Below are positions 3,584 through 37,227 of a DNA stretch of 64,000 nucleotides, piece by piece; position 1 is the first letter of the stretch, and each line of letters opens with the position of its first letter. The stretch covers positions 250,555 through 314,554 of the forward strand of contig CAZSJW010000001.1 in the NCBI GenBank assembly GCA_964607285.1. The letters are read 5' to 3'. Below the pieces are notes generated by a model. That model had not been told where the DNA came from. It made no database searches and saw only the letters and a list, made by a program, of their open reading frames with translations. The stretch is from an uncultured Pseudomonadales bacterium. GTDB lineage: Bacteria > Patescibacteriota > Microgenomatia > UBA1400 > PJMF01. The translations under genes were made by a program, and so were the position numbers.

Positions 3584-4254
3584 TCAACGCATGTTATATA
3601 CTGATGGGGTTCTTTTCTAGTATACTGAGCATAATGTCATACGCAGAACAAAAACGATTACTTGATTTAGTGGTAGCAACTATACTTGCGGTCGTGTTTT
3701 TGCCAATATGGTTTCTGATCCCAATTTTAATTTATGTGGACTCAGGTTTTCCAATTATTTTCAAACATAGACGTGTTGGCAAAAATGGCATGGCATTTGA
3801 TCTATACAAGTTTCGTTCTATGGTGCCAGATGCTGATGAAATCTTGCATAAGCGAAATCCACAGCTCCTAGAACAGTTTAAAAATGGTGACTGGAAAATT
3901 CAAAATGATCCTAGAATTACTAGACTGGGTAGGGTTCTCCGTTCGCTAACCATAGATGAATTCCCTCAGCTATACAATGTCTTTCGTGGTGAGATGAGTA
4001 TGATTGGTCCAAGAGCCTACGTCCAAAAAGAGCTCGATGAACAAACTACAAGATACCCTGAGACTAAACAATACGTTAGTCATATTCTTTCTGTAAAACC
4101 AGGGATCACTGGCCCTTGGCAAACAAGCGGCAGAAACGAGGTCCCATTCAAAACTCGTGCCAAAATGGATGCACAATATGCAAAAAAACAGTCTATCTGG
4201 GAAGATATTCAGATCTTGCTCAAAACACCTCAAGCGATGATCTCAAAATGGTAA
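3580..4254 (+). CDS. Polyprenyl-phosphate sugar phosphotransferase (bacterial sugar transferase, WbaP/PglC-like C-terminal domain)
   Basis: GTG start at 3580 overlaps the upstream stop; an alternative ATG is at 3604. There is one N-terminal TM helix. Motifs present: KFRSM, DE(I/L)PQL, PGITGPWQ(T)SGR. Confidence 0.75.
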   Translation: MINACYILMGFFSSILSIMSYAEQKRLLDLVVATILAVVFLPIWFLIPILIYVDSGFPIIFKHRRVGKNGMAFDLYKFRSMVPDADEILHKRNPQLLEQFKNGDWKIQNDPRITRLGRVLRSLTIDEFPQLYNVFRGEMSMIGPRAYVQKELDEQTTRYPETKQYVSHILSVKPGITGPWQTSGRNEVPFKTRAKMDAQYAKKQSIWEDIQILLKTPQAMISKW

Positions 4255-8438: not shown

Positions 8439-9248
8439 ATGGCCTCTATGCAGAAAAAGCTCATTATCCCGATAGCTGTTGTTTTACTTATCATTGGCGG
8501 TGTCAGTGCATATTTTTTGACCAGAGAAAACAAAACCGATGTAGCTGATACTAGGAAACAAAAGAAGAAAGTTGAAGAGCCTGTGAATGTCATCCCCGTA
8601 GCAGAACGCCCCTACGTACAGATCTCACCAGTAGCTGATGGCAGAAATATTGAACTACTTGTTAAATCGCTCAACAAACCAGCAACAAGCGCAGAGTATG
8701 AGCTTGAGTACCAGTCAGGCACTTTACTGCAAGGAGCGTTTGGTTTACTTGAGCTATCACAAGTTCCTGCAAAGGAAACAATTTTACTAGGCAGCTGTAG
8801 CGCAGGTGGCAAGTGTACTTACCATGAAGATGTGAAAGGTGGAAGTCTCAAGCTTACATTTGATGGTGCGGAGCGGTACGCAGTTAAATCAGATTGGCGA
8901 TACTTTGAGAATACAGCTAAGGAAACAGCATTTTCTTCAAAGGATGCCAAGTTTCAAATTGAGTCAAAGTCATTTGCAACCCAACCATATGTGGTAATTT
9001 ACAATAGCCCAGGGTATCCAGAGGGAGTAGAGGGTGTCGTGTCTGAAAGTTACTCATTGGCTGTGAGTAAAACAATTACTGGAACAGCTACCTTGACCAT
9101 ACGTGCTGAGCAAGAGGGTAATCTCCAGATTATGGGTTGGAATGGCAGTGAGTGGCAGAGCTTTGAGAGTACTGTAGATGGAAAGATGGTTAGTGCTGAG
9201 GTGGATTTGATGGAGTTGTATGTGGTAAAAAACCTCTTGAGTAACTAA
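8439..9248 (+). CDS. Hypothetical membrane-anchored or secreted protein
   Basis: N-terminal hydrophobic helix (KKLIIPIAVVLLIIGGVSAYFL) followed by a Ser/Thr/Gly-rich beta-like domain. No recognisable catalytic motif. Confidence 0.4.
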   Translation: MASMQKKLIIPIAVVLLIIGGVSAYFLTRENKTDVADTRKQKKKVEEPVNVIPVAERPYVQISPVADGRNIELLVKSLNKPATSAEYELEYQSGTLLQGAFGLLELSQVPAKETILLGSCSAGGKCTYHEDVKGGSLKLTFDGAERYAVKSDWRYFENTAKETAFSSKDAKFQIESKSFATQPYVVIYNSPGYPEGVEGVVSESYSLAVSKTITGTATLTIRAEQEGNLQIMGWNGSEWQSFESTVDGKMVSAEVDLMELYVVKNLLSN

Positions 9249-9259: not shown

Positions 9260-9901
9260 ATGAAGGATCAAGTAAGAATATCGTATAATACAATTGCTGA
9301 ACGGTACGCACAAACTAGAAAGCAATTCAGCAAGAGCAACAATTTTCACTTAGAACTACTTAATACATATCTAAAAAGTGGATCTACTGTGTTAGATCTT
9401 GGCTGTGGGTCAGGATTTCCAGTTTCAGCTTTCTTTGCAAACAAAGGTCACAAAGTAATTGGTTTGGACATTTCAGAAAAGCAGATTGAGCTTGCAAAAA
9501 GTAACGTCCCAGATGGGCAGTTTGAGGTAGGAGATATTGAAACCTTACATGAGTCAGCGTTCAAAGTTGATGCTGTACTTGCGTTTTACTCTATCTTTCA
9601 TATTTCTAGAGATAAACATGCTGAGATCATAACTAGAATAGCTAGTTTTTTAAGTCCAGGTGGAATGCTTTTGATAACTATGGGTGCTGCAGAATGGGAA
9701 GGAAATGATAACTTCCTTGGAGTTAAGATGTTTTGGAGTCACTGGGGTCAGGAAAGAAATACTGCCATTGTACTTCGCGCTGGCTTTAAGATTATCATCA
9801 ATGTAATTGATCACTCTGGTGAAGAAGAACACCAAGTAATACTCGCACAGTTAAAAAGCATTCAATTAACCAGAAAACCAATGATTTTTTCAAAACAGTA
9901 G
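9260..9901 (+). CDS. Class I SAM-dependent methyltransferase
   Basis: Motif I VLDLGCGSGFP with an acidic post-I residue (GLDIS). 213 aa. Confidence 0.65.
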   Translation: MKDQVRISYNTIAERYAQTRKQFSKSNNFHLELLNTYLKSGSTVLDLGCGSGFPVSAFFANKGHKVIGLDISEKQIELAKSNVPDGQFEVGDIETLHESAFKVDAVLAFYSIFHISRDKHAEIITRIASFLSPGGMLLITMGAAEWEGNDNFLGVKMFWSHWGQERNTAIVLRAGFKIIINVIDHSGEEEHQVILAQLKSIQLTRKPMIFSKQ

Positions 9902-11124
9902 TATTTCCCTCTGTTAGGATTATTGAGCAGCTCTGTAAGGAAACTTGAATTATAGTATGTATCGCCCAATCCGATCCCTTTTGAAGGGATGTCCATAATA
10001 TAATACATAGATGCCCACTCAATGGGCAATGACTTTCGCAGTTCTGTTATGAATGCTTCCTTTTCCATATCTACTGCATGAAATGATGGATGGTTATCTG
10101 TTTTGCATTGGGCACTATATGACAATACTCCCATCTTTGGAATAATTGTCTTCAATGTACCTGAATACTCTGTCTTTTTGCTGAAATACCTGTTCGGTGC
10201 TAAGTTTAGCGCATTGTTGTTGATACTGCTAACAACGTGAGTTAGCTCGTCCTCCTTGAGTACTACACTTGTCGGCACAAAAATATCATCAACTGACACA
10301 TCCTCTTTGCCCATATACCCAACACCTCCAACAATTCCGATCTTTGAAATATTTGGATTCAGTAGTAACAATGCCTTGAATTGTTGAGTTGTCAACTCAA
10401 CACCCCATTGCAATTGCACGATACTTATTTTTTCACCCCGATATACAACATTTATAGCACGTACATATGCAGAATCTGAATCAAGTGACTCAACCTGTAA
10501 TTGAGTGTCAATAAAAACAAAAGTAAGACCAAAACTTTCTAAGTAAAATTTTTCAATCGAATCTAAATAATTTGGATCAAAATCTTTCAATCGAGCCGTT
10601 TCAACAGCAAGCAACATTGACTCAATCTTTTCCCAAGGCATTTCGGTGTTTTCTAACAACCAAATGGCGCGAAGATAAAAAAGCACACTTTCAACCCTCC
10701 CTATGAAAACCCTATCTGATATACCCCAATGAGCACAGATAGAGGAGTAATCTGAGACTTCATTTGTTATGCAAACATCAATTGCAGAAGAATGGTTTAG
10801 GTGCTTGAAAACAATTGCTAATGAACGCATGGTATGTACTAACACATCATTACTAGCAACTTCACAATACAGTTCATCAGCCTTACCATTACGAAAATAT
10901 TTCGGTTTGAATAAATGGTTATTTATACTGTTCTGAGTCCTCATTCGGACTAAGTACTGTGGAACTCTGTCAAATAATGTGGTTTTGAAGGTAATCTTTT
11001 TAACTTTTTTCAGCTCTTCCCATATTGGTGTGAGAGAACTATGGTAATCAATGTCACCAATACTCAAAACATGATCTGACGGTAGTGGGTACATGCTAGT
11101 TAAATCACTGTTTGTTTCAGACAT
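9862..11124 (-). CDS. Hypothetical protein with a C-terminal nucleoside phosphorylase / MTA-SAH nucleosidase-like (PNP_UDP_1) fold and an unknown N-terminal ~180 aa
   Basis: GEKISIVQLQWGVELTTQQFKALLLLNPNISKIGIVGGVGYMGKEDVSVDDIFVPTSVV parallels the MTAN core (SGIGKVAAA...LI..F.PD.VINTGSAGGL...GDVVVS). Later HAVDMEKEAF...YYIMDIPS parallels AVEMEA.A......VVRAISD. This is from memory of the family, not a search. Confidence 0.45.
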   Translation of the reverse strand: MSETNSDLTSMYPLPSDHVLSIGDIDYHSSLTPIWEELKKVKKITFKTTLFDRVPQYLVRMRTQNSINNHLFKPKYFRNGKADELYCEVASNDVLVHTMRSLAIVFKHLNHSSAIDVCITNEVSDYSSICAHWGISDRVFIGRVESVLFYLRAIWLLENTEMPWEKIESMLLAVETARLKDFDPNYLDSIEKFYLESFGLTFVFIDTQLQVESLDSDSAYVRAINVVYRGEKISIVQLQWGVELTTQQFKALLLLNPNISKIGIVGGVGYMGKEDVSVDDIFVPTSVVLKEDELTHVVSSINNNALNLAPNRYFSKKTEYSGTLKTIIPKMGVLSYSAQCKTDNHPSFHAVDMEKEAFITELRKSLPIEWASMYYIMDIPSKGIGLGDTYYNSSFLTELLNNPNRGKYYCFEKIIGFLVN

Positions 11125-11230
11125 TTTTACCCCTATATGTATGTATTAAAATATATATTACGGTATCATTTATACACACCCAGTGTGTATTATACAGTAT
11201 GATTTAAAATATGGTGAATATAGGTAAGAG

Positions 11231-12079
11231 CTACATTCTCTTTCTTGCAACTAGAATCATATTTGGTGTAGATGTAAAAATCCTAATTAGTTTTTGCTTC
11301 AAAGATGCTGGGTCATTAATGTTCTTATATACTTCCTTCTCATTCGTACTAAGAACAACGTCAAATCCAAACGAATTAAGCATAACTTCCATTCCTACCT
11401 TTGTATAGGTAATAACATGTCCCTCATCTTGTAAAAACGGCGTCTTTAAACCAGCTAATCGGGCACCAAATCCGCCGACATCACCCGTATCGATTAATAA
11501 AAAGCCACCAGGACTTAGTAGTTTATTTATATGCAGCAATGCTAACTTTGGATTGGCAATATGCTCAATCACATCAGTCATAGTGATAAGGTTGATATCT
11601 GTTTCAGAAAATGGGGCTAGGACGGCTGGATCACAAATGTCACCACAAACAACTTTATCTAGTCGATTTTGCGCAATCTGGCAATCAGCCTCCGAGATTT
11701 CAATACCTGAAGAAAATTGTAGATTCAGTTGCCGTGAGATGCGGGATGCTAACATACCGATTCCACAACCAATGTCTAGCATTGAATCAATTTTCGCACC
11801 AGAATTTAAAAACTTTTGAATTAATTTAATATAGAATTCTGTATGGGCATCTCTCATCTCTTCATACGAATCAATATCAGACCACCTACGCAAGCCACCC
11901 GCATAGAAACTTTTTAATTCTTCATTTGTCGGAAGTGGATTGGCATAAATGCTACCACAAGCCGCACATTTACTCATACTGAGACCCATATTTTTTTCAA
12001 CAACGCCAATATGACTACCAGATACCGAAGCACAAACTGGGCATGAGGATTTTTCTTGTTCTGTAAGTAATCTTTTCAT
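11231..12079 (-). CDS. SAM-dependent methyltransferase with an N-terminal Cys4 zinc-ribbon
   Basis: CPVCAS...CAACGS zinc ribbon. Motif I MLDIGCGIGML and motif LSPGGFLLIDTGD. Confidence 0.65.
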   Translation of the reverse strand: MKRLLTEQEKSSCPVCASVSGSHIGVVEKNMGLSMSKCAACGSIYANPLPTNEELKSFYAGGLRRWSDIDSYEEMRDAHTEFYIKLIQKFLNSGAKIDSMLDIGCGIGMLASRISRQLNLQFSSGIEISEADCQIAQNRLDKVVCGDICDPAVLAPFSETDINLITMTDVIEHIANPKLALLHINKLLSPGGFLLIDTGDVGGFGARLAGLKTPFLQDEGHVITYTKVGMEVMLNSFGFDVVLSTNEKEVYKNINDPASLKQKLIRIFTSTPNMILVARKRM

Positions 12080-12082
12080 CTT

Positions 12083-13489
12083 TTACTTTCTTAGTTGAAT
12101 GATAGTATACGAAATGTTGTCAACTGTAGTGGTAGAGTAGATCGTAAATCTCCCAAAAACTCTCTCGAAAATACCGATAAATTTTGTTTGGAATGATTGT
12201 TCAATTACACAAAAGCACTTTCCTTTGTTTTCAAGTTTTGACCTAATGCCTATAAAAAAGTCAAGTAAGACTGGTATATCCAAGTGATACGGTGGATTGC
12301 TTAAAATTAAATCATACTTGCCTGCTATGTCTTCTTTAATATTTCCGGCATTCAATACTTGAACTCTTTCTGATAAGCCGAGCTTTTGAACATTCTGTTC
12401 AGCAACGTCAATTGCTCGCCTACTACTATCAATCAAATCCACCTGAGCTGCAGGAAAGTATTGTGCTGCAGTACAACCGATGACTCCCCAGCCACAGCCA
12501 GCATCTAGTATTTTTTTTGGTGTATCATCATTATTTTTGAAGATTGGAAGAACAGTCTCTAAAAGATACCTAGAGCCAAGATCAAGATTATTTTTTGAAA
12601 ATAGACCATGTTCAGTCTGGTAATTTGATTCAAGTCCAAAGATAGAAACAGGAACTTGTGGAGCTGAAAGTGACTGCACCAAATCTTGATCAGATACAAT
12701 ACGTTCAGCAGCAAAAACTCTGTAACCGCCCCTACCTGTGAAAATATGTGAGAATTGCTCTGAGCCAAAAACCTCAGAAACTATTTTTGCATGACGCGGT
12801 GCCCCACTCTTATTATGGGTTACAACATACAGTTTACCCCCAATCTTTAGTGATGCATACGCCGTTAAAATATAGTCACGAATTGCATCTAATCCTACAT
12901 GGGAGGGTGGTCTGAGTATCACAACATCATACTCGCTTCCAAGTGTATTCCCAGCAACGCAAAATGCGTTGCAAATTGGCAAAGTTTCCATTGTGTCCAT
13001 ATTTGCATCTAGATTCCTCTCAATAAGCCTAGTGTTGGATTCATCATCATCATATAAATAGATGCTTGCCATAGGATTTCTAGCGGCCAACAAAATGCCC
13101 ATTGATCCATTCCCAGCGTTCAATACAAGTGCCTTGGATTTTTCAGGAATAGGGATGGTTTTTAATGCGACTTCAGTTGTTAAATCTCGACCAAAATCGG
13201 TACAGACTTTGTCTCCAGTTAAACAAGCATAAATTTTTGCTGATACATCTAATATTGAAAGTACTGGCAACTCTTTCTGCTTTCGATTAAAAATCTCGCC
13301 AGTGTTACGCTCAGTTTTATTTCTACCAGAAAACGTATCAATTGGATCAACATCAGCATCAGAACTAAAAGTGTCTTGTGTTAGCAATTCACCGTAAGTA
13401 GCATCACTAACAACCTTTTCAAAGTCGTCATCGTTCTCGAAACTCCATGTTCTACCTTTTTTTTTGTTTGTTTCAAAAAAAAGTGTCAT
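12083..13489 (-). CDS. Tandem-domain SAM-methyltransferase, RsmC/RlmG-like (methyltransferase small domain) with a ~110-aa N-terminal extension
   Basis: C-terminal domain has VLDAGCGWGVIG and DLILSNPPYH (the NPPY amino-methyltransferase motif). The N-terminal domain is a degenerate copy (LVLNAGNGSMG ... VVILRPPSH). This is the RsmC/RlmG active-plus-inactive architecture. Confidence 0.55.
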   Translation of the reverse strand: MTLFFETNKKKGRTWSFENDDDFEKVVSDATYGELLTQDTFSSDADVDPIDTFSGRNKTERNTGEIFNRKQKELPVLSILDVSAKIYACLTGDKVCTDFGRDLTTEVALKTIPIPEKSKALVLNAGNGSMGILLAARNPMASIYLYDDDESNTRLIERNLDANMDTMETLPICNAFCVAGNTLGSEYDVVILRPPSHVGLDAIRDYILTAYASLKIGGKLYVVTHNKSGAPRHAKIVSEVFGSEQFSHIFTGRGGYRVFAAERIVSDQDLVQSLSAPQVPVSIFGLESNYQTEHGLFSKNNLDLGSRYLLETVLPIFKNNDDTPKKILDAGCGWGVIGCTAAQYFPAAQVDLIDSSRRAIDVAEQNVQKLGLSERVQVLNAGNIKEDIAGKYDLILSNPPYHLDIPVLLDFFIGIRSKLENKGKCFCVIEQSFQTKFIGIFERVFGRFTIYSTTTVDNISYTIIQLRK

Positions 13490-13628
13490 ATTAAATCCTA
13501 ATTAGTTTTTATATAAGACTCGTTCATTATAGTTCACATCATGAATATGTCAATATAAATAATTATTGCGATATTAATTTATACGTATATAATACACACA
13601 GTATACACAGAATTCAGTAAGTCAAGCA

Positions 13629-14900
13629 ATGTCAATTGAAAAAAAAAGAAATCTGTTATTCGTAACTAGAGACTTTAGTTACCCTGGTGGAACTGAACGC
13701 TTTTTTATTGACTTAGTGATTCATGCATCTCGATTCTCAGATTTCACTGTTCACACGCTCGATACAGAAGGCACAGGAATCTTCAACCCTGACACACATC
13801 AAGAGATGGAAAGTGCTGGAGCAAAGGTAATACGCACAAGAAATCATGGAAATCAGTTTTGGGACATATACAGAGCAAAGCAACTAGTTGATATTATCGA
13901 AAAAAGAAACATCGATATTGTCCATTCAGCACTATTTAATCCAGATTTTATAGTACTTTTAGCAAAACTTGGTTCAAAACAAGTTCGTCCATTGCTTGAG
14001 AGTTTTAGTTGCTACAAGCGTCTCCTGCAGATTTGTCCCGAGATTACGGATGCAGATGAGAACACACCTTCAACAAAATTATTTAAGTGGGTCTCCACAA
14101 AGTTTTGCTCATTCTCAGTAGCACTTGAAGAAAATACTCCTGCGTGGACAGTTCGTAAAAAAATTATTGACCACAAGCTGGAACCAATAGTCTCTACCCA
14201 TGCTGATATAAGTCAGCTTGTCTCAAGCAACCAATTTAAAAAATGGCGCAATTGGTCTGAATCTACCGAACTAACTCCCTGTTGTTCACTTGGAGAAAAG
14301 GACCTGATCTACATTGAATCATTAAAAGAACAAAGAAACCAGCTAAGATTAGAACTACATCTATCAGATGCTTGTAAAGTATTTTGTACAGCATCGCGGC
14401 TAGTCCCCGGAAAAGGATTAGAACTTCTAGTGGAGTCTTTCTTAGAACACATTCGCAACCATCCTCAAGATATATTAATAATTGCAGGCTCGGGGCAGAT
14501 TGAAGAACAACTAAAGCAAATGGCTGGCAACCATCCCAATATATTTTTTACTGGGTTTATACCGAGAGAAGAGCTCTTTAAAATTTTCATAGCTTCAGAT
14601 GTAGGACTTTTACTTTCAGAATCTGAAGGATTACCTCTGTCCATACAAGAGATGATGGGATGCTCATTGCCTGTTATTGCTACAAATGTCGGAGGTATCC
14701 CAGAGCTAGTAAACTCAAAAAATGGAATTCTAGTTGAACCAAATAATACGATACAAATAAAGCATGCCTTTAATAAAATAGTGGCATATTCAGATGAACA
14801 ACTTGCAGAGCTTGGTTCAAACTCATTAAAAAAAATTGAGCGAAATTTCATCAAAGAGCGTGTTTTTACAAAAATATTACAGTCCTATGAACAAAGCTGA
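13629..14900 (+). CDS. Glycosyltransferase family 4
   Basis: SESEGLPLSIQEMMGCSLPVIATNVGGIPELV is the GT4 E-x7-E region. 423 aa. Confidence 0.7.
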   Translation: MSIEKKRNLLFVTRDFSYPGGTERFFIDLVIHASRFSDFTVHTLDTEGTGIFNPDTHQEMESAGAKVIRTRNHGNQFWDIYRAKQLVDIIEKRNIDIVHSALFNPDFIVLLAKLGSKQVRPLLESFSCYKRLLQICPEITDADENTPSTKLFKWVSTKFCSFSVALEENTPAWTVRKKIIDHKLEPIVSTHADISQLVSSNQFKKWRNWSESTELTPCCSLGEKDLIYIESLKEQRNQLRLELHLSDACKVFCTASRLVPGKGLELLVESFLEHIRNHPQDILIIAGSGQIEEQLKQMAGNHPNIFFTGFIPREELFKIFIASDVGLLLSESEGLPLSIQEMMGCSLPVIATNVGGIPELVNSKNGILVEPNNTIQIKHAFNKIVAYSDEQLAELGSNSLKKIERNFIKERVFTKILQSYEQS

Positions 14901-15807
14901 ATCAAAAAATCACATTTTCTTTGAACCGCACAGAGATGACTTACTATTGACGTTTGGTGGCAGACTTATTGAATTGCTTGAAAAAGGTGAAAGTGTCACG
15001 AATCACCTAATCTATGGTCGTGATGGTTTCATAAGACCAGCTTTTCTAAGGAAGTTGAGTGAAAGGGATGCGGAAACCCACGCATACCTAAAAAACATTT
15101 CTCAATACACTGGAAAAGAAGAAATATACGATTGGATCGTAACAAATCTGCAGAGCCAATCCATAGATCGGCTAGATTCTGAGTCTATTACTGATATAGG
15201 CATAGCCATTCGACTTATTGAAGAGCGGGCATGCATGCAGTACCTCGGGGTACATCTGATAGAGCACGATCAACCATGTGCATACCCACTCCGTGGATAT
15301 AAAACTTTCAATGAAGACAATCCAACTGACATAGCAACTCAAACCGAACTACAATTTCATCAAATTGTCTTGCCAGCTGTTTTATCTGGAAATCTTAACA
15401 GTCAATATTACTTCTTATCAGGAATTGGTGGCCACCCTGATCACAGAATCCTTGCTGCTTCGGGAACTAAGGTTGCTCAATACACAAACAAAGATCAGTC
15501 TGTTTCTTTTGGTCAGGATTTACCCTATGCCGCAGTACTTGAGTGGTTTAGAAGATCAGACCTTGCATTGGAACAATTCGATATACAATACACCGATATA
15601 TCACACACTTTATTACAAAAAATTGATTTGCTAGAACGCTTTTACAAGTCACAGCTATCACCAGAAGATCTTCGCGTAGTAGAAATGTTTCACAGATCAA
15701 TCGTAAACTTGATGAGCAGGGAGTACTGTACGGACATACTAGCAAAACAAGGCATAGAGATTGATAAGGTTACCGCAATTGAATGCAGATATGGAACACA
15801 TGCATAA
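14887..15807 (+). CDS. PIG-L/LmbE-like deacetylase (putative)
   Basis: FFEPHRDDLLL is a degenerate HPDDE motif, and GIGGHPDHRIL is the H-x-D-H motif. Start chosen at the ATG at 14887 (14-nt overlap); the ORF track starts at 14836. Confidence 0.4.
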   Translation: MNKAESKNHIFFEPHRDDLLLTFGGRLIELLEKGESVTNHLIYGRDGFIRPAFLRKLSERDAETHAYLKNISQYTGKEEIYDWIVTNLQSQSIDRLDSESITDIGIAIRLIEERACMQYLGVHLIEHDQPCAYPLRGYKTFNEDNPTDIATQTELQFHQIVLPAVLSGNLNSQYYFLSGIGGHPDHRILAASGTKVAQYTNKDQSVSFGQDLPYAAVLEWFRRSDLALEQFDIQYTDISHTLLQKIDLLERFYKSQLSPEDLRVVEMFHRSIVNLMSREYCTDILAKQGIEIDKVTAIECRYGTHA

Positions 15808-17059
15808 AGAACAACTTCACCTTGTGTTTCCAGGCCTGCATGCAGAGAACTTTAACAAAGATTCTGGTGGTATCCAACTGGCTGAGGTAAACTTCGCCCA
15901 ATCATACGCAGAAATGCAACTACCAATAACTACATATGTTGGTTCGAAAACTACAAGGAGTCGTAAACACTCAAGTGGTGTACAGATTGAACATGTTTCT
16001 CTTGGTCTTAACGAACCACAGGGAGGAATTACTGACTCTGAAACATTCTGCCTTTCCACTGTAACAAAGTTGGTTACAGCAACCTATGGCCAACCAGATA
16101 ACATAGTTCATTTTACAAGTGTTGGTGCCGCAATGAACTTTTTTACTGACCCAATTAATTACCTACGAAGAAAACAAGGTGGGCCCCAAACTGTATACAC
16201 GTTGCACAACTACCATTACGCAATCGCTAACAAACCATATGATGTTTTTGAGAGCTACCCAACTGAATGGCAATTTCTTCATGAACAGGAATCAAAAGTA
16301 ATATCCTCTGCAGATGCTGTCTGGGTAACAAATCCCACTATTGCTGCTGAACTGTCAAGGCGTTTCTCTCGTAATATACAGTACGCTCCAAACACCATAG
16401 GATCCATTGAAAATCATCACATAAAATCTGTAAAAACGGACTTTATGATATTCACTACTATGTGCCGTCTTGCTAAAGAAAAAAATATCAAACGAACCAT
16501 TGAAGCATTTTTATTGCACGCTAAACAACATCCCGATGCACGACTACTGGTCGCAGGTTCTGGAGAAGAAGATCAAGCACTCTGTGAGTATCTTGATTCA
16601 ATACATTGCGCTTTTACCAGGAGAGGGCAGGAATCAATCAAAAACACAATACAACTATTGAATCAATTCAAAATAATATTTTTGGGGCAAGTTAAGGCTG
16701 CTGAAAAAAGACAGGTATGGCAAGTTACTGACCAATTTATTCTTCCTTCTTTGAGAGAGGTAAGTCCCTTAGTAGGGTTAGAAGCAATGATGTATGGAAA
16801 ACCCATTATTGGCAGTGACATCCCAGGTTGGGCCGACTATAAAAATGAGGGAGCACCAGTAGCCACACCTGATCCAGCATCAACTGAATCCATTGCTGCA
16901 GCAATGGATATCATGAGTCATCTTACAACAAAAGAATTTGAAAAAACTGCTAATACTGCTAGAAGCACCTATGATAAATATCATGCCCCAAATGTTGTGG
17001 TCCCAAAAAGGCTCGAACTCTACAAACTGGTAAAAAATAATTCGCAAGCAGAATTATGA
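15791..17059 (+). CDS. Glycosyltransferase, GT4-like
   Basis: VSPLVGLEAMMYGKPIIGSDIPGWADY. Start chosen at the in-frame ATG at 15791; the track starts at 15761 and 15800 is another candidate. Confidence 0.55.
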   Translation: MEHMHKEQLHLVFPGLHAENFNKDSGGIQLAEVNFAQSYAEMQLPITTYVGSKTTRSRKHSSGVQIEHVSLGLNEPQGGITDSETFCLSTVTKLVTATYGQPDNIVHFTSVGAAMNFFTDPINYLRRKQGGPQTVYTLHNYHYAIANKPYDVFESYPTEWQFLHEQESKVISSADAVWVTNPTIAAELSRRFSRNIQYAPNTIGSIENHHIKSVKTDFMIFTTMCRLAKEKNIKRTIEAFLLHAKQHPDARLLVAGSGEEDQALCEYLDSIHCAFTRRGQESIKNTIQLLNQFKIIFLGQVKAAEKRQVWQVTDQFILPSLREVSPLVGLEAMMYGKPIIGSDIPGWADYKNEGAPVATPDPASTESIAAAMDIMSHLTTKEFEKTANTARSTYDKYHAPNVVVPKRLELYKLVKNNSQAEL

Positions 17060-18186
17060 CGGAGAAGAAATATTTAAACATGAACCTAATGGCTGTTTGT
17101 GGGACAGTGTATCGCAGGGCATCTGATGAAGCTAGTTCATCAGGCTCAGATGTAGCCCTGGAACAACAATTAGATGATTTTTCACAGCATGTTGGCCAGA
17201 TATCTGCTGTATCGCTTGAAAAGACTGGTTTACCTCAAGTTGAAAAAATTGCCAAAAATATAACCGTCTATAGAGTGGCTGATGAATTGATCCCCCAAGC
17301 AATGCGCACAGTTCATGATTTACTTCACAAAGGTAGAACTGATGCAGTAATCGCTCAAGTTATGCACATGGACGTTGCCCTCAAAACTGCAAAAGATTTA
17401 CAAATCAAGACAATTTTCAATCAGCATGACTTTGACGTTTTGCCGAGCATGGGAAAGGGCGGTGAAATTGAACCTACTTTATTTCTGGCTCCAAGCCGTG
17501 CTGTTGCGGAGAGAATAGCAGAAGTGGCTGGCAAAGAAGCAATAATTTATCCAAACAGATTTGCAAATTTGCATGAAATCATAGGAAGTGACACTATTCA
17601 ACAAAAATATGACGTTCTAATGTTTAACCCAAATACGCTAAAGGGTGGCAATATATTTGTTGAACTTGCGAAACGTTTTCCTGAACTTCAGTTTGCCGCA
17701 GTTGAAGGATGGACCGATCTCAAAACCGGTGGAGTTTTTGATCTTCCTCTTATGCAAATCATGGCTCGGTCTTATAGTGGTGATGCTACTGCTGTCCAAA
17801 TCCCAGAAGAACCATCCTTTACTGACATAAAAAATCTAACTGTTTTGCAACCTCAAAAAAGGGTTGGTGACTTGATAAAGGCAGCGAGGCTGGTGCTAGC
17901 CCCTTCTCAATGGGAAGAGGCGTTCGGAAGAGTGATTGTGGATGCAGGTTTAAACAACAGACATATTATTGCTAGTAATATTGGTGGAATACCAGAGGCA
18001 ATGACTGTTGCGGGAATGCCAATTGAGACTCACCCACAACTTTTAGTGGACGATTACACAAACATTGAAGCATGGATTACCGCACTACGCTTCTTTTTAC
18101 AAAATGAGACTAAACTGCCTAAACCAGAGCCAAAATTACCAACACCAAATATTACAGCAGTCTTAGATTACCTAGTAAATAACTAA
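17056..18186 (+). CDS. Glycosyltransferase, GT1-fold (GT4-like)
   Basis: EEAFGRVIVDAGLNNRHIIASNIGGIPEAM. Start overlaps the upstream stop by 4 nt. Confidence 0.5.
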   Translation: MTEKKYLNMNLMAVCGTVYRRASDEASSSGSDVALEQQLDDFSQHVGQISAVSLEKTGLPQVEKIAKNITVYRVADELIPQAMRTVHDLLHKGRTDAVIAQVMHMDVALKTAKDLQIKTIFNQHDFDVLPSMGKGGEIEPTLFLAPSRAVAERIAEVAGKEAIIYPNRFANLHEIIGSDTIQQKYDVLMFNPNTLKGGNIFVELAKRFPELQFAAVEGWTDLKTGGVFDLPLMQIMARSYSGDATAVQIPEEPSFTDIKNLTVLQPQKRVGDLIKAARLVLAPSQWEEAFGRVIVDAGLNNRHIIASNIGGIPEAMTVAGMPIETHPQLLVDDYTNIEAWITALRFFLQNETKLPKPEPKLPTPNITAVLDYLVNN

Positions 18187-19265
18187 TGCAAGAAAAAATT
18201 AAGATTGGGTACGACCCAATCTACAATTACTATCCAACGCACCACGGCGAAATTATTAGAAGTACTCAAAATGACTTCGAGTGGAAGAGTATACCTGGAA
18301 TGGTTCAAAATCATTATGAGGAATCACTTCTATCCGACTCAGCAGATGAAAGAGTGCGTTTCATTAGCGGTGGGACACTTGCCGCTGATGCGTGCGATTG
18401 GGTTTTCTCACCACACATTTTGCCTCTAAATCCTGAACAAAATAATAAAGTTGCTATGGAGATAGAGGCAATTGGCTGGCTGTTTGGCGATACGTATGAG
18501 GAAGTTTCTCAACCAGTTCCACAATGGAAGATCGATATATTTTGTAGAGCTATCATGAATCCATCACTTGTAAAAATATGCTGGCAAAGCCAGTCTGCAT
18601 ACGCTCAATTTACTGAGTTTCAGGTAATCTACAAATTGCCTACTGATGTCACAGAAAAAATTATGAGTATCAGCTCGGTGTTGCTACCAGGCTCAGCCAT
18701 CACTGAGAAAAAGACACCTGACACTTCTGGTAATCACCTGCTTGCCACATGTACCACTGATAATTTCTTTAGAAAGGGGGGTGATGTTTTAGTTACACTT
18801 GTAGAGCTATTAACAAAATTGAATGTACCTCCCTGGAGTCTATCAATAGTCGGTAGCATGCCTAATGAGTTTATTAAGCGTATTTCAGCTGATAACGTAC
18901 ACATCTATCAATCAACCGATTTTAAAGGATTTCAAAAAAGACTTGATTCTGCAGATGTTTTTCTATTCCCTTCCCGTGCTGATTCATTTGGTTTAACTGC
19001 GATGGAAGCAATGAACCATGGTCTGTACGTACTATCAACAAGTGGAAAAGCCGTATTAGCTACAAAAGAGTTCCTATCAGACTATCCAAATCATCAAATT
19101 ATTGAAAGTAAGGGTCATGACGGCACTTACGATATTCTAGACGAGCAGCTTTTCTGTACTGCTGTAATTTCCTTACTTCAAAATCCTATCAAGTTGCAAA
19201 GCTTCGACTCTCCATGCAACCTTGCGAGGTTGCGAAAAGATGTGCTCTCCGTTTTTAGTAGTTGA
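18186..19265 (+). CDS. Glycosyltransferase, GT4-like
   Basis: PSRADSFGLTAMEAMNHGLYVLSTSG. Confidence 0.55.
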   Translation: MQEKIKIGYDPIYNYYPTHHGEIIRSTQNDFEWKSIPGMVQNHYEESLLSDSADERVRFISGGTLAADACDWVFSPHILPLNPEQNNKVAMEIEAIGWLFGDTYEEVSQPVPQWKIDIFCRAIMNPSLVKICWQSQSAYAQFTEFQVIYKLPTDVTEKIMSISSVLLPGSAITEKKTPDTSGNHLLATCTTDNFFRKGGDVLVTLVELLTKLNVPPWSLSIVGSMPNEFIKRISADNVHIYQSTDFKGFQKRLDSADVFLFPSRADSFGLTAMEAMNHGLYVLSTSGKAVLATKEFLSDYPNHQIIESKGHDGTYDILDEQLFCTAVISLLQNPIKLQSFDSPCNLARLRKDVLSVFSS

Positions 19266-19334
19266 TTGTTTTATCAATCATTCTTTTACCCTCTTTACAG
19301 AGGTTGTTTTTTTTGCCATACTCCATCTATTAAC

Positions 19335-20989: not shown

Positions 20990-22789
20990 ATGACCTCCTC
21001 AGACCAGCCTGGATTACTTCCTGAAATAGTGGCACTTCGTGGTCGATGGTTTTTTGCTTTGCTGTGCATGATCTACATTGCTATTTTTTTTCGTTTAGGA
21101 TATTGGCAAGTAGTAGAGGGAGCAGAACTGAGCTCAGCAGCAGACGATCAATACTCTAGGTCAGTCACAAAAACTGGCAAACGAGGTGACATACTTACCG
21201 CCGATGGCTACACTCTTGTGACAAACGAAGTCATGTATCGATTGTTTGCACAACCCAAGCAACTGAAAGATGAACCATTGGATATTGCCACCCTGTTGGC
21301 TCCACTACTTGTATCGCAAACAGCTAGCTCTGCAGCAGAACGTACCGATGAACTAGCACAAATCAAGCTAGACCTCACGGAAAAACTTTCCAAAGACCGC
21401 TCTTGGATCAACTTGCAGTATTCGGTCTCAGCACCCGTCAAAAGTCAGATTGAAGATTTAAACATTCATGGCATCGGATTTGATCCTTACGACCGCAGAT
21501 ACTATCCAGAAGCTTCAATGGCTGCGCACATACTTGGCTTCGTTGGAAAGACTGAAAACGGTGACGAAGTTGGGTACTTTGGATTAGAAGGTTCACTAGA
21601 TAAAGAGCTAAAAGCACGTACAATAACTAACACAGTTTTGACCGATGCATTAGGTTCCTTAGTACAGTCTGATGGTATATTTTCAACGGCAATTTTAGAC
21701 GGTCGGCGTGTTACGACAACCATCCGCCGTGACATACAACATGTGGCAGAAACTCAACTCAAGTTAGGTATGGAACAATACGGTGCCAAAGCTGGTGAAA
21801 TCATCATTATGGAACCAAAGACAGGTAAAATTCTTGCTATGGCAAGCTTTCCCAACTATGAACCTGATCATTTTTATGACACGGACCCTCAGTTGTATAA
21901 AAATCCAAGCATCACAGATATTTATGAACCTGGATCTACTTTTAAGGTTTTGACTGTTTCCGCAGGCATCGACTCGGGGGTTATCAACCCAAGCACGGAG
22001 TGTCCAAAATGTGCGACTCCAAGGGTATTCGGACAATATACCATCCGAACTTGGAATGATGTGTATAACCCCAATATCATAATGGAGCAAGCACTTGCCA
22101 AATCTGACAACACCGCAATGATGTACATAACAGATTTGCTTGGTGCTGATCGCTTTAAAACATATGTGCAAAAGTTTGGAATAGGCCACACATTGGGGAT
22201 TGAACTACAAGAAGATACGAGCACGCCATTTCCACAAAAGTGGGGTCCTGTAGAGTTAGCAACTATCTCTTTCGGCCAGGGCATTAGCACAAATAGTTTG
22301 CAAATCACTAATGCCGTAGCTGCAATTGCTAATGGAGGCTCTCTCATGCGCCCCATGCTAGTTTCATCTGTAGAAGATACTGTTTCAAACGAAAGCATTG
22401 AAATAAAGCCGCAAACTATTCGACAGGTTGTTTCCCCCCAAACTGCAAGTACAGTCACTAACATGATGATCACAGCAGCGCAAAGTGGTGAGGCTCAGTG
22501 GACCTCATCCAAATCCCACACTATTGCTGGAAAAACTGGCACATCACAGGTAGCAAATGCTGGAGGATATGACGAGAATAAAACTATCGCAAGTTTTATA
22601 GGATTTGCACCTCCAGAAAATCCGAAATTTATTATGTTAGTCAAACTGACCGAACCAACAACTTCCCCATGGGCAGCGGAAACTGCTGCACCCCTGTGGT
22701 ACAAGATTGCAAGTAAATTGTTTTTGCTTTTGCAAATACAACCTGATAGAACTACGGGAACACCTGCTACAATTAGTACTAGTTTATGA
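20990..22789 (+). CDS. ftsI: Peptidoglycan D,D-transpeptidase FtsI (class B PBP)
   Basis: N-terminal TM. Motifs STFK (EPGSTFKV), SDN (KSDNTAM) and KTGT (AGKTGTSQ). Confidence 0.85.
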   Translation: MTSSDQPGLLPEIVALRGRWFFALLCMIYIAIFFRLGYWQVVEGAELSSAADDQYSRSVTKTGKRGDILTADGYTLVTNEVMYRLFAQPKQLKDEPLDIATLLAPLLVSQTASSAAERTDELAQIKLDLTEKLSKDRSWINLQYSVSAPVKSQIEDLNIHGIGFDPYDRRYYPEASMAAHILGFVGKTENGDEVGYFGLEGSLDKELKARTITNTVLTDALGSLVQSDGIFSTAILDGRRVTTTIRRDIQHVAETQLKLGMEQYGAKAGEIIIMEPKTGKILAMASFPNYEPDHFYDTDPQLYKNPSITDIYEPGSTFKVLTVSAGIDSGVINPSTECPKCATPRVFGQYTIRTWNDVYNPNIIMEQALAKSDNTAMMYITDLLGADRFKTYVQKFGIGHTLGIELQEDTSTPFPQKWGPVELATISFGQGISTNSLQITNAVAAIANGGSLMRPMLVSSVEDTVSNESIEIKPQTIRQVVSPQTASTVTNMMITAAQSGEAQWTSSKSHTIAGKTGTSQVANAGGYDENKTIASFIGFAPPENPKFIMLVKLTEPTTSPWAAETAAPLWYKIASKLFLLLQIQPDRTTGTPATISTSL

Positions 22790-24003
22790 TCAAAGAACTT
22801 ATTTATAAAATCAAGCGACCGTATCACTTTTTGAAAACAGGAATTCTAAACGGATTGATTTCCGAAGTTGCAAATGGTTTTCCAGCTAGAAAACTTAGCG
22901 TGTTAGCAATTACGGGTACGGACGGCAAAACCACATCAGCAACCCTACTGTACTTTGCTCTCAAGCAAGCTGGTTTTAAAGTAGCACTGCTTTCAACTGT
23001 TGCCGCATTCAAGGGTGAAACCGTCATTGACACTGGTTTTCACGTAACTAGTCCTCAGCCATCAGATGTTCAAAAGTTCATGGCAGAGTTAGTTCAAGAT
23101 GGGTTTACGCATTTAGTTCTAGAAGTAACGTCTCATGGTGCATACCAATACCGTACCTGGGGCATTAATCCCAGCATTGCAGGCATAACAAACATAAACC
23201 AAGAACACCTTGACTACCATCTTTCGTACGACAGATACGTTGCTGCCAAGACACTTGTACTAAAACAGGCCCCAACAGTTGTGCTTAACGAAGATGACAT
23301 TTCCTATTATCGTTTAAGAAAAATACTAAGCAACCAGGATATATCAATCCTGGCATACAGCATGAGTGACCGACTACCAACAGTTGTTTCCAAGGCAATT
23401 AGCGAAAGATTTCCCGAACAATACAATCGAATGAACGCACGATTAGTATACAAAATTGCCAAAGAGTACGGTATATCCAATAGTGACTTTGCAACTGCTG
23501 TGCAAAACTTCCCTGGCATACCTGGCAGAATGGAGAGCATCCCAAATAAACTAGGCATCTCCATTATTGTGGACTTTGCTCACACACCCCAAGGTCTGGA
23601 AGCCGCGCTCACTGCATTACGAAAACAACTGAACCAACAAAAGAACCCTGGGAAACTCATTGCAGTTTTCGGCTGTGCGGGACTTAGAGATAGCGGTAAA
23701 CGTCCTATCATGGGAGCAATCGGTGCGGAACTTGCTGACTTCGCAGTATTTACAGCTGAAGACCCTCGAACTGAAAATCTTTGGTCTATACTGAACCAAA
23801 TGAAGAGCTCACTTGGTACTCACCATACTTCCGTCACCTCAATTGCAGATAGAGGAGAAGCTATTGCTTTCGCACTATTTTCTATAGCTAAGCGTGGTGA
23901 CACAGTTGTGATTCTCGGCAAGGGTCACGAACAAAGTATGTGCTTTGGCACAATTGAGTACCCATGGAGTGACCAGAAAGCTGTACTTGAACTGCTCACA
24001 TAG
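22786..24003 (+). CDS. murE: UDP-MurNAc-L-Ala-D-Glu--2,6-diaminopimelate (or L-Lys) ligase MurE, lacking the usual N-terminal domain
   Basis: ITGTDGKTTSA is the P-loop. LEVTSHGAYQYRTWGI, NINQEHLDYHLSYDRYVAAK, IVDFAHTPQGLEAAL (MurE-specific DYAHTPDAL), VFGCAGLRDSGKRPIMG and GKGHEQ are collinear with E. coli MurE. Only ~40 aa precede the P-loop, versus ~110 in E. coli. Confidence 0.8.
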   Translation: MIKELIYKIKRPYHFLKTGILNGLISEVANGFPARKLSVLAITGTDGKTTSATLLYFALKQAGFKVALLSTVAAFKGETVIDTGFHVTSPQPSDVQKFMAELVQDGFTHLVLEVTSHGAYQYRTWGINPSIAGITNINQEHLDYHLSYDRYVAAKTLVLKQAPTVVLNEDDISYYRLRKILSNQDISILAYSMSDRLPTVVSKAISERFPEQYNRMNARLVYKIAKEYGISNSDFATAVQNFPGIPGRMESIPNKLGISIIVDFAHTPQGLEAALTALRKQLNQQKNPGKLIAVFGCAGLRDSGKRPIMGAIGAELADFAVFTAEDPRTENLWSILNQMKSSLGTHHTSVTSIADRGEAIAFALFSIAKRGDTVVILGKGHEQSMCFGTIEYPWSDQKAVLELLT

Positions 24004-24009: not shown

Positions 24010-25005
24010 ATGAGGAAAAAAACAAACATCCCACATGTGGTCGTCATGGGAGGCGGCACGGGCACCTTTGCGGTCACCAGTGCATTGAAGCGACTTCCTT
24101 GCACAATTAGTGCCATTATTGCCGTTTCTGATTCTGGTGGATCAACAGGAAGAATCAGAGACGAGTTCGGGTTTCAGCCTGTTGGTGACTTGCGGCAATC
24201 ATTAGCAGCACTAGCTGATCTCTCAAGCCAGCAATGGATTCAAAAAATTCTCTTGTATCGTTTTGATAAGGGCAGCGGACTGCAAGGTCACAATCTTGGG
24301 AATCTTATTCTCACCGCACTTCAAGATATGAGCGGTAGCACAGGTAAAGCACTAGAGATTGCAGAAAAGATCTTCAACTTGCACGGGAAGGTTATTCCCG
24401 TCACAAACCAAACTGTGGACCTTAAAATTTTTTACCAAGATGGGTCTACAGTGATTGGGGAGCATATCTTAGATGAGTCTGATGAAAACCCCAAAAGCAT
24501 TGATCGAGTAGAACTGACCCCCGAATGCACACTAAATCCAGTCGCGCATGAAGAAATTCTTACAGCTGATTTTATTTGTATTGGTCCAGGGGACTTATAC
24601 GCGAGTTTACTTGCTACATTGGTAGTACCAGGGATCTCTGAAGCTTTTGCGCAAACCAAGGCAAAGATTGTGTATATACCAAACTTGATGACTAGACGAA
24701 CGCAAACTCACAATATGACAGCTCGTCAACACGTTGATAAAATTGCCGAGGTGTTAGGTCGTAATGTAGACATCATTCTCATAAATAACACTACTATTCC
24801 TCAAGCTATTTTGAAAGCCTATGCTGCCGAACAAGAGTTTCCAGTAACAGACACTCTAGCTGCTGATACTAGAGTGATTCGAGCAGACTTTCTCAAAGAG
24901 CAGCCCGTACCAAAAACCGCAACAGATACTGCATATCGGTCGTTACTTAGACACGACCCAGAAAAACTTTGTGCTGTATTTAGAACGATACTTTTCAAGG
25001 CATGA
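24010..25005 (+). CDS. yvcK: YvcK/CofD-family protein (UPF0052; gluconeogenesis factor / UDP-sugar-binding)
   Basis: VVVMGGGTGTFAVTSALKRL...IIAVSDSGGSTGRIRDEFG matches the YvcK GGGTG / DDGGSSGRLR motifs. Confidence 0.7.
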   Translation: MRKKTNIPHVVVMGGGTGTFAVTSALKRLPCTISAIIAVSDSGGSTGRIRDEFGFQPVGDLRQSLAALADLSSQQWIQKILLYRFDKGSGLQGHNLGNLILTALQDMSGSTGKALEIAEKIFNLHGKVIPVTNQTVDLKIFYQDGSTVIGEHILDESDENPKSIDRVELTPECTLNPVAHEEILTADFICIGPGDLYASLLATLVVPGISEAFAQTKAKIVYIPNLMTRRTQTHNMTARQHVDKIAEVLGRNVDIILINNTTIPQAILKAYAAEQEFPVTDTLAADTRVIRADFLKEQPVPKTATDTAYRSLLRHDPEKLCAVFRTILFKA

Positions 25006-36250: not shown

Positions 36251-36361
36251 AACGATTGATCAACATTTTTTGTTGCAATTTATGCAGTCATCTGCAGTTT
36301 GCATATCCCAATAGTTTTGTTATAATCAGCTCAGAAATAGTAGTAACTACTCATATCAACT

Positions 36362-37206: not shown

Positions 37207-37227
37207 CTGCAGTGCTATACTTTCCCT

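Follow-up and report, generated by a model that had tools for sequence, protein, structure and literature searches.

Organization of the Locus

The 64,000-nucleotide stretch of contig CAZSJW010000001.1 that was analysed here (the window, numbered from its first letter) carries, at positions 13629–19265 of the plus strand, five open reading frames (ORFs) that overlap or abut in the ORF listing. These five genes, g1 to g5, and three partner genes encoded on the minus strand at 9862–13489 (NPI, MT23, and MTS2) are the subject of this report. The first, g1 (13629–14900, 423 residues), encodes a GT4-type glycosyltransferase of the GT-B fold. It is followed by g2 (14887–15807, 306 residues from its ATG), which encodes a zinc hydrolase of the LmbE/PIG-L fold (a putative N-deacetylase), and by g3 (15791–17059, 422 residues), which specifies a second GT4-type GT-B enzyme. 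The last two genes, g4 (17056–18186, 376 residues) and g5 (18186–19265, 359 residues), encode divergent GT-B glycosyltransferases. The start of g2 at the ATG at 14887 is backed by homologues; the longest ORF opens at 14836. In comparisons among loci, g1, g3, g4, and g5 and their orthologues are called GTA, GTB, GTC, and GTD, respectively.

A sequence-only reading of this DNA had placed a glycosylation island at exactly these coordinates and had described its genes as co-directional, as they are. It counted six genes, a GT4 enzyme and an LmbE-like deacetylase followed by four more GT4 enzymes, where five are found. Successive genes overlap by 14, 17, 4, and 1 nt and so leave no space for a sixth gene or a fifth glycosyltransferase, which is thereby excluded within the interval.

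The two gene sets diverge from a 139-bp spacer between MTS2 and g1 that contains two promoter-like sites placed back to back, both of them consensus matches only. A perfect sigma-70 consensus (TTGACA-16-TATAAT, 12 of 12 positions) at 13526–13553 on the minus strand precedes the MTS2-MT23-NPI unit, and a 10-of-12 match (TTGCGA-16-TATAAT) at 13566–13593 on the plus strand lies 36 bp upstream of the g1 start codon. In the scanned 10.4-kb region as a whole, 19 promoter-like sites were counted, which is below the number in shuffled controls (30.3 ± 5.5). Past g5, 25 bp beyond its stop codon, a hairpin and T-run at 19290–19313 of the plus strand (CCTCTTTACAGAGG then TTGTTTTTTT) resembles a terminator by pattern match only; it lies before mraZ, which begins at 19370 and whose identity is confirmed by Pfam. 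The arrangement supports the prediction that g1–g5 form a co-transcribed glycosyltransferase operon with an embedded gene for an LmbE-type hydrolase.

The LmbE-Fold Hydrolase

The assignment of g2 to the PIG-L family, as first proposed, fares differently at the levels of model score and of fold. Against PF02585 the protein scores 22.5 bits (E = 1.7e-4), which is under the 28.2-bit gathering cut-off, while its motifs and fold are upheld by the family profile and by structure prediction. A precomputed PF02585 match exists for seven of the 12 cluster representatives that make up the g2 family among 5.8 billion proteins; it is absent in the other five, the protein of the window among them. When 1.84 billion representatives were searched in full with the HMMER profile, a subfamily of 17 stood out at E ≤ 2e-43. 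Past this subfamily come weaker and then generic LmbE proteins of ~230 residues (18 at E ≤ 1e-30 and 2236 at E ≤ 1e-3).

Neither of the motifs H15-R-D17-D18 and H183-P-D185-H186 varies among the 12 homologues or among the 12 locus copies. In LmbE enzymes, HxDD and HPDH provide the zinc ligands and the general base, as is known from MshB, BshB, and Orf2*. Searched against the PDB, the family profile matches LmbE-superfamily chains only, the best of which are Orf2* (3.6e-9) and Dbv21 (6.2e-9), and HRDD and HPDH of g2 align with the same motifs of Orf2*. The AlphaFold2 (AF2) model has a predicted local distance difference test score (pLDDT) of 91.1 and a predicted template modelling score (pTM) of 0.90. 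All 42 of its Foldseek matches in the PDB at E ≤ 1e-3 have the LmbE fold; they include Orf2*, Dbv21, Dac, BshB, MshB, TT1542, LnmX, and GalB, and identity with the solved LmbE-fold enzymes is 11–16%.

Profile and model thus give good support to the prediction that g2 is a metal hydrolase of the LmbE fold whose active site is intact, and the deacetylase-like gene that had been seen embedded in the island survives both tests. Its putative activity is most likely that of a deacetylase. The actinomycete loci L006–L008 and the short loci L019–L023 were left out of consideration; their match is confined to the HPDH region of generic LmbE proteins.

The Glycosyltransferases

The gathering cut-off of PF00534 is 26.4 bits, and g1, g3, g4, and g5 score 96.7, 73.5, 35.6, and 43.3 bits, respectively. 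Because all four matches lie above it, the operon is assigned four GT4-type enzymes and not the five that had been claimed. The matches of g1 (PF00534, 1.5e-27) and g3 (2e-20) are accompanied by weak matches to N-terminal domains, PF13439 at 2.5e-4 in g1 and PF13579 at 4.8e-3 in g3. In g4 the match (8.7e-9) covers residues 262–353 and thus the C-terminal half only. The same holds for g5, which matches PF13692 (1.1e-11), PF00534 (3.7e-11), and PF20706 (4.4e-11). Neither Pfam nor the family profiles detect an N-terminal GT-B domain in g4 or g5, and the matches of those profiles are confined to C-terminal domains in structures of the GT4/GT5 type.

All four enzymes have a pair of acidic residues spaced seven residues apart, and the motif is conserved across orthologues. 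It reads E-x7-E in g1 and g3, E-x7-D in g4 (E-x7-E in orthologues), and D-x7-(E/D) in g5. The nearest solved structures to g1 are PimB' and BshA, in the C-terminal domain only. For g3, which has a conserved N-terminal DSGGIQ motif, the sole solved structure matched at E ≤ 1e-3 is Gtf1, which we take to be a protein O-GlcNAc transferase. The best PDB matches of the g4 profile are Alr3699 (4xso, 1.3e-3) and 3c4q (2.4e-3), a "predicted glycosyltransferase" that is presumably MshA; a PSQWE motif is invariant among the g4 orthologues. The g5 profile matches the C-terminal domains of GlgA and PimB' at ~2e-6, and in one related locus (L002) a GT1-family UDPGT gene occupies the GTD position.

There is scarcely any similarity among the four glycosyltransferases, and this implies a different specificity for each. 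Judged by this divergence, they are old and distinct enzymes. No glycosyltransferase of the operon reaches any NCBIfam cut-off, nor does g2 or either of the methyltransferases described next.

Three Upstream Partners

NPI (9862–11124, minus strand, 420 residues) was identified by fold search as a protein whose C-terminal domain has the NP-I (nucleoside phosphorylase/nucleosidase) fold. It has no sequence-level annotation, its profile retrieves nothing from the PDB, and no match was found for the N-terminal ~200 residues. Two motifs are invariant in the family, D352-M-E354 and Y-x-M377-D378. They align with E-M-E174 and S-D197 of E. coli MTAN in an hhalign comparison that falls short of significance (E 0.13). 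In MTAN, Glu174 is a ribose-binding residue and Asp197 is catalytic.

The NPI family comprises ~22 cluster representatives among the 5.8 billion proteins; one homologue, MBD3362283.1 from Candidatus Dojkabacteria, belongs to a locus without the cassette. Members of the family adjoin genes for HAD-type hydrolases in L002, L009, and L010. A HAD gene lies in the same cluster as NPI in L012, and a PfkB kinase gene lies near NPI in L009; the stretches concerned are 6751–7395 of L002, 11451–12104 and 12132–13181 of L009, 918–1619 of L010, and 1265–1879 of L012. This company of HAD and PfkB proteins hints at a nucleoside or nucleotide substrate.

MT23 (11231–12079, minus strand) is a class I S-adenosylmethionine (SAM)-dependent methyltransferase (Pfam Methyltransf_23, 2.1e-18) with an N-terminal CxxC...CxxC zinc-ribbon-like motif, of which both CxxC pairs are kept in all orthologues (L001, L004, L005/L018, L015, L016, and L017). 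Its nearest structures and NCBIfam matches are generic small-molecule O- or N-methyltransferases, all of them under cut-off. MTS2 (12083–13489, minus strand) is a two-domain methyltransferase resembling RsmC and RlmG, in which the Pfam MTS family (8e-46) matches two stretches. The N-terminal domain is degenerate. The C-terminal domain is of active type, with an invariant DxGCGWG SAM motif and SNPP(Y/F/L)H, some orthologues having NPPLH. Its PDB matches are MJ0882, RsmC, TTHA0533, and RlmG, and it falls under every NCBIfam equivalog cut-off, with 93 against 295 bits for RsmC and 56.4 against 468 bits for RlmG. MTS2 forms a clade of its own with 15 cluster representatives, the window's own included (E ≤ 2e-34); the next match is a generic RsmC at 4e-16.

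Beside NPI, the plus strand encodes a further class I methyltransferase of 213 residues (9260–9901), whose gene converges on NPI, the two sharing 40 nt at the 3' end of NPI. Ahead of it on the same strand, 8439–9248 specifies a protein of 269 residues that matches no family and has a hydrophobic segment near its N terminus. Other loci conserve neither of the two genes next to the cassette.

A Conserved Eight-Gene Cassette

Contigs of relatives, all metagenomic, were compared after orthologues had been assigned by BLAST and per-gene hidden Markov models. The genes g1–g5 have one-to-one orthologues at 30–55% identity that are syntenic in independent contigs, so the neighbourhood of the island is conserved. 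With this neighbourhood, and with the deacetylase motifs upheld, neither outcome that the sequence-only reading had named as its refutation is found. NPI, MT23, and MTS2 travel with g1–g5 in about ten of these contigs. The methyltransferase module had initially been taken as a boundary of the island; its three genes are instead conserved partners. Judged by this synteny, the functional unit is the eight-gene stretch 9862–19265.

One relative, L001, has a layout identical to that of the window. In L004 and L016 all eight genes form one co-directional operon, GTA-NPI-LmbE-GTB-GTD-GTC-MT23-MTS2. The same order is seen in L017, where the contig stops after MT23, and in L005/L018 and L015, which are truncated at contig ends. 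L014 reads MTS2-GTA-NPI-LmbE-GTB-GTD-GTC, and L002 has six of the eight genes, the GT1-family gene standing in the GTD place. The gene set thus survives an inversion and a swap of GTC and GTD, and an MTS2 orthologue is present in each cassette locus of sufficient length.

Two adjacencies recur. GTB follows immediately downstream of the LmbE gene wherever the cassette is found, even on the short contig L013, and GTA in the relatives directly adjoins NPI, which usually lies between GTA and the LmbE gene and overlaps the GTA stop codon. GTA adjoins NPI also in L012, a locus with GTA-NPI and MTS2, different glycosyltransferases, and HD, HAD, and radical-SAM genes, and without the LmbE, GTB, GTC, and GTD genes. 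L003 has the converse content, an LmbE gene with other glycosyltransferases and without GTB or the rest of the cassette. GTA thus pairs with NPI and LmbE with GTB in the relatives, and a role of g1 as maker of the LmbE substrate is not established. Exchangeable sub-modules seem to be the building blocks of the cassette.

The wider content of these two loci is as follows. L012 (314–11407) encodes, besides GTA-NPI-MTS2, a GT2 enzyme, a second GT4 enzyme, HD, HAD, and radical SAM/SPASM proteins, an epimerase, and a single-domain MTS methyltransferase. In L003 (1–11941) the LmbE gene is accompanied by genes for GT2, TauD, radical SAM, and Methyltransf_24 proteins and for two unannotated proteins of ~416 residues that are not NPI homologues.

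Each of the LmbE, NPI, and MTS2 families is very rare, and the three are co-distributed; they have 12, 22, and ~15 cluster representatives, respectively, among the 5.8 billion proteins. The cassette also differs in composition from its surroundings: its GC content is 0.383 against 0.430 for the rest of the window, and the GC content at third codon positions of its eight genes is 0.28–0.34 against 0.32–0.52 for other window genes sampled, with some overlap. Horizontal acquisition of the cassette is possible. The relatives are known from metagenome assemblies only, one contig with LmbE and GTB genes bearing the sample label "Hain-H41-02um". For the window itself, descent from the Patescibacteria (CPR) is plausible.

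The flanks are unrelated between clades; the cassette adjoins the dcw cluster in the window and Lon/YkuD, DUF362, TPR, and xanthine-dehydrogenase-type genes elsewhere. A transporter, acceptor, or carrier gene common to the flanks of different clades was looked for, and none was found. Literature searches returned no description of this combination of genes.

Cellular Location and the Surface-Glycan Genes of the Window

None of the eight cassette proteins has a hydrophobic segment reaching 1.6 on the Kyte–Doolittle scale, a test that does flag the Wzx, Wzy-like, Bac_transf, and DUF4012 proteins of the window. The cassette enzymes are thus likely to be soluble, either cytoplasmic or membrane-peripheral. 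No flippase, priming transferase, polymerase, or transporter gene is linked to the cassette in any related locus.

The window does hold genes of surface-glycan type. Pfam confirms the ManC-like, Bac_transf (priming transferase, 3580–4254), and DUF4012 genes that had been noted in its 5' part. The Wzx/GT2/Wzy trio (49171–52341) is borne out for its Wzx-type (Polysacc_synt_3) and GT2 members, while the third protein, which has eight hydrophobic segments, stays below threshold for Wzy_C (26.3 against 31.7 bits). It is plausible that the 5' locus and the trio constitute a complete Wzy-type set without g1–g5.

Directly after the Wzy-like gene, 52325–53050 on the minus strand encodes a protein of 241 residues with Big_6/Big_13 and Glucodextranase_B domains, which may be a surface-exposed or glycan-binding partner of the Wzx/GT2/Wzy locus. 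The sole NCBIfam match of the GT2 gene (50286–51149) is to the SunS-family peptide S-glycosyltransferase, at 30.7 against 350 bits, and probably reflects generic GT2 similarity.

A Proposed Pathway

We propose, with a probability of about 0.5, that the window encodes a self-contained, soluble cassette of eight enzymes, expressed from divergent promoter-like sites, that assembles a short, de-N-acetylated, and methylated glycoconjugate. In this scheme the four GT-B enzymes, two of them clear GT4 proteins and two divergent, would each add one sugar from a nucleotide sugar to give a short product of up to about four sugars. The hydrolase g2 would free the amine of an amino sugar added during the pathway by removing its N-acetyl group or some other N-acyl group. 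Because the LmbE gene of the cassette always adjoins GTB, the GTB step is the likeliest pathway neighbour of this reaction. MT23 and MTS2 would methylate the product at the expense of SAM, the NPP(Y/F/L)H enzyme MTS2 most likely on an amino group. NPI may cleave an N-ribosidic bond, either in the methyltransferase by-product S-adenosylhomocysteine (SAH), and in 5'-deoxyadenosine (5'-dAdo), or in a nucleoside or nucleotide of the pathway. The acceptor is possibly nucleoside-related. The observed gene set, with its conserved operon structure, folds, and motifs, and with neither membrane segments nor linked export genes, is the frame into which these steps are fitted; the substrates, the order of the steps, and a small rather than polymeric product are what we infer.

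Several observations weigh against this proposal. Glycan pathways do not normally include a nucleosidase-like protein of the NP-I fold or an amino-methyltransferase resembling RsmC, and these two hint at a substrate that contains a nucleobase. NPI and its HAD and PfkB neighbours persist where the glycosyltransferase cassette is missing, and the role of NPI may be independent of both methylation and glycosylation. The gene contents of L012 and L003 suggest that the cassette may be two sub-modules rather than one linear pathway. Two of the four putative glycosyltransferases are recognisable in their C-terminal halves only, and the cassette contains no genes for nucleotide-sugar synthesis. Finally, the LmbE fold also includes amidases and a hydratase, GalB, deacetylation being its commonest activity.

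Alternative Explanations

The hints of a nucleobase can be given a larger role. It is possible, if unlikely, that the acceptor or an intermediate is a purine nucleoside or nucleotide, with MTS2 N-methylating the base, NPI processing the N-ribosidic bond, and the glycosyltransferases and the LmbE enzyme building an amino-sugar chain. The outcome would be a modified nucleoside or a glycoside derived from one, by a logic akin to that of the hopanoid side chain (HpnG nucleosidase, HpnI glycosyltransferase, and HpnK deacetylase of LmbE type) or of tunicamycin-type clusters. The usual position of NPI, overlapping the end of GTA and followed by the LmbE gene, would fit such a scheme, as would the persistence of GTA, NPI, and MTS2 in L012 beside HD, HAD, and radical-SAM genes when the other cassette genes are gone. 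The HAD genes that adjoin NPI in L002, L009, and L010 or share its cluster in L012, together with the nearby PfkB gene of L009, point the same way. The closest structures to MTS2 are rRNA methyltransferases that form N2-methylguanosine (m2G), and the typical targets of NPPxH methyltransferases are exocyclic amines of nucleobases or glutamine amides. In NPI, moreover, the DME motif of ribose-binding type and the MD motif of acid type are invariant.

However, no enzyme of the cassette obviously joins a nucleoside to anything, the alignment of NPI with MTAN is weak, and a role as a nucleosidase for SAH or 5'-dAdo accounts for NPI more simply. The parallels with hopanoid and tunicamycin biosynthesis lack counterparts here, for the eight-gene core contains no squalene-hopene cyclase, HpnH, or TunA/B. 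A product or substrate containing a nucleobase would be either a glycosylated nucleoside metabolite of a new class or, more radically, glycosylated RNA, in either case confined to uncultivated and probably episymbiotic carriers; we regard this extension as improbable.

According to the sequence-only reading, the island, the 5' locus (two GT4 enzymes, a ManC-like protein, a polyprenyl-phosphate sugar transferase, and DUF4012), and the Wzx/GT2/Wzy-like trio together form one multi-locus pathway for a surface glycan or glycolipid. All of the named genes exist in the window, and the elongation of lipid-linked glycans at the cytoplasmic face of the membrane is a common task of GT4 enzymes. The ManC-like protein could supply GDP-mannose, the donor on which the nearest solved structure to g1 depends, and the cassette lies near cell-envelope genes both in the window (the dcw cluster) and in L014 (YkuD and LytR_C). 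Yet the genes of the 5' locus and the trio are unlinked to the cassette in every other locus, where the flanks differ completely between clades, and the two loci plausibly suffice without g1–g5. The conserved partners of the cassette are instead two methyltransferases and a nucleosidase-like protein, and its base composition is distinct. A single pathway uniting the three loci is thus doubtful and, for want of linkage in any related contig, is not sustained.

It is more doubtful still that the cassette glycosylates and methylates a macromolecule, either a protein or an RNA, such as a ribosomal component, a pilin, or an S-layer protein. MTS2 shares the two-domain architecture of RsmC and RlmG and also scores against models of the protein-glutamine methyltransferase PrmC/HemK. 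The only solved match of g3 at E ≤ 1e-3 is Gtf1, and neither lipid-carrier nor export genes are linked to the cassette. On the other hand, MTS2 falls below all equivalog cut-offs for rRNA and protein methyltransferases and lies in a clade of its own, and no gene that might encode a target is kept next to the cassette. We know of no precedent for four different glycosyltransferases and a deacetylase acting on RNA.

A route to a low-molecular-weight thiol or cofactor of the mycothiol/bacillithiol type, in which GlcNAc-X made by a GT4 enzyme would undergo deacetylation by the LmbE enzyme and then ligation of cysteine, is very unlikely. A GT4 enzyme beside an LmbE-fold enzyme is the hallmark of the first half of both thiol pathways, and BshA is among the better NCBIfam and PDB matches of g1. 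Nevertheless, g1 scores 69.1 against a required 273.7 bits for BshA and 47.5 against 462.5 for MshA, and g2 has no NCBIfam match to MshB or BshB at E ≤ 0.01. Neither the scanned ORFs of the window nor the annotated related loci contain a gene of MshC, BshC, or MshD type, and three additional glycosyltransferases and two methyltransferases would have no role. This explanation is close to refuted. The resemblance to mycothiol, bacillithiol, and glycosylphosphatidylinositol (GPI) synthesis that had been pointed out holds for the logic of a glycosyltransferase followed by an LmbE-type deacetylase. It does not extend to membership, since the equivalog scores are far below cut-off and no cysteine ligase is found in the same ORFs and loci.

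An anti-phage defence or conflict system is likewise very improbable, even though g5 matches PF20706 ("GT4 in conflict systems") at 4.4e-11, the MTS2 domain matches PADLOC mad2 at 8e-32, and NP-superfamily domains occur in conflict systems as a known effector type (PMC7159879), because the PF20706 score of g5 (42.8 bits) is about that of the generic PF00534 and is on a level with those of the two unrelated 5' GT4 genes (45.9 and 31.2 bits), so that the match amounts to generic GT4 similarity, PADLOC has no match for five of the proteins and weak ones for MT23 (mad2, 2.5e-7) and g3 (JetB, 2.4e-4), a search of 50,697 phage records returned nothing for NPI, as did one of 72,556 plasmid records for the LmbE protein, and no NTPase, sensor, nuclease, or restriction partner, nor any other defining component of known defence systems, is present.

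If what the parts suggest is true, and the cassette does make a short modified glycoconjugate, it would represent an uncharacterised pathway that unites three enzyme families, each of which numbers a dozen or two clusters among billions of proteins. The carriers probably depend on other cells, and their surface or cytoplasmic glycoconjugates are almost unknown. As a compact eight-gene unit the cassette could be expressed heterologously. It also holds lessons for annotation. The functional unit may be wider than a run of similar-looking genes; neighbours labelled "rRNA methyltransferase" or "hypothetical protein" can be integral members of a pathway; and a family profile combined with a structure model can settle a Pfam match that falls below threshold.

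Other Features of the Window

Within the dcw cluster a CofD/YvcK-family gene (24010–25005; PF01933, 1e-75) lies between two genes for Mur ligases (22786–24003 and 25002–26420). Genes of the FtsW/RodA/SpoVE family occur twice, at 29844–30941 in the dcw cluster and at 44244–45356, 13 kb downstream; the second adjoins a gene for a PP2C-like phosphatase (42849–44147, minus strand). ORFs for proteins of 534, 439, 680, 191, 201, and 249 residues have no Pfam match at E ≤ 1e-4 (E ≤ 1e-3 for that of 439). These ORFs lie at 38083–39687 (minus), 54817–56136 (minus), 56398–58440 (plus), and 35675–37977 (plus), and those for 439 and 680 residues flank a tRNA-Gly(ccc) gene.

Comparison with Known Systems

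Among the nearest parallels to the cassette are the enzyme pairs MshA/MshB and BshA/BshB of mycothiol and bacillithiol synthesis. There too genes for a retaining GT4 enzyme and for a zinc deacetylase of the LmbE fold occur together, with HxDD...HPDH intact, and MshB and BshB are among the structural matches of g2, as BshA is among those of g1. Unlike those pairs, g1 and g2 are not orthologues of the thiol enzymes, their NCBIfam scores lying 4- to 10-fold under cut-off. The cassette lacks a cysteine ligase and an acetyltransferase and has in addition three glycosyltransferases, two methyltransferases, and an NP-I protein. The aminoglycoside pathway through 2'-N-acetylparomamine also opens with a GT4 step followed by an LmbE step. 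PIG-A and PIG-L of GPI synthesis have the two-step logic and the Pfam name PF02585 in common with the cassette, with g2 below the gathering score. They are membrane proteins acting on phosphatidylinositol, whereas the cassette proteins have no membrane segments.

The closest solved relatives of g2 are Orf2* and Dbv21, the N-acetylglucosaminyl pseudoaglycone deacetylases of the teicoplanin and A40926 pathways (3.6e-9 for the best profile match and 1.3e-11 by fold). The GlcNAc on which these enzymes act already sits on a larger scaffold, within a pathway of several glycosyltransferases. In comparison with them g2 is 14–16% identical and has an extra helical insertion (residues ~50–120 of the model). 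The cassette has no nonribosomal peptide synthetase, acyltransferase, or GT1-family partner, although the L002 variant does have a UDPGT.

A further parallel is provided by the hopanoid side chain. To our knowledge no characterised pathway other than its biosynthesis brings together a nucleosidase of the NP-I fold, a transferase for GlcNAc, and a deacetylase of LmbE type; by family, hpnG is the nucleosidase, hpnI the glycosyltransferase, and hpnK the LmbE-type deacetylase. The roles of hpnG, hpnI, and hpnK in side-chain formation have been listed (PMC5462960). The likeness is one of logic only. The glycosyltransferases of the cassette are GT-B/GT4 enzymes, and no squalene-hopene cyclase, HpnH, or HpnJ accompanies them.

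Methylation of the products of cytoplasmic GT4 enzymes by SAM-dependent methyltransferases also has counterparts. In E. coli O9a the GT4 mannosyltransferases WbdA, WbdB, and WbdC work with the terminating methyltransferase WbdD, a system that needs an ABC transporter and an undecaprenyl-linked primer. The O9a cluster and the mycobacterial clusters for polymethylated polysaccharides resemble the cassette in combining the two kinds of enzyme, but they are not known to contain LmbE, NP-I, or RsmC-like enzymes, all three of which the cassette has. MTS2 itself shares with RsmC and RlmG two MTS domains, of which the N-terminal one is degenerate and the C-terminal one active with NPP(F/Y)H; it differs from them in belonging to a separate, rare clade that travels with glycosyltransferases and in the NPPLH of some orthologues. 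The best reading of these comparisons is that the cassette is an uncharacterised variant of the known theme of a GT4 glycosyltransferase combined with an LmbE enzyme.

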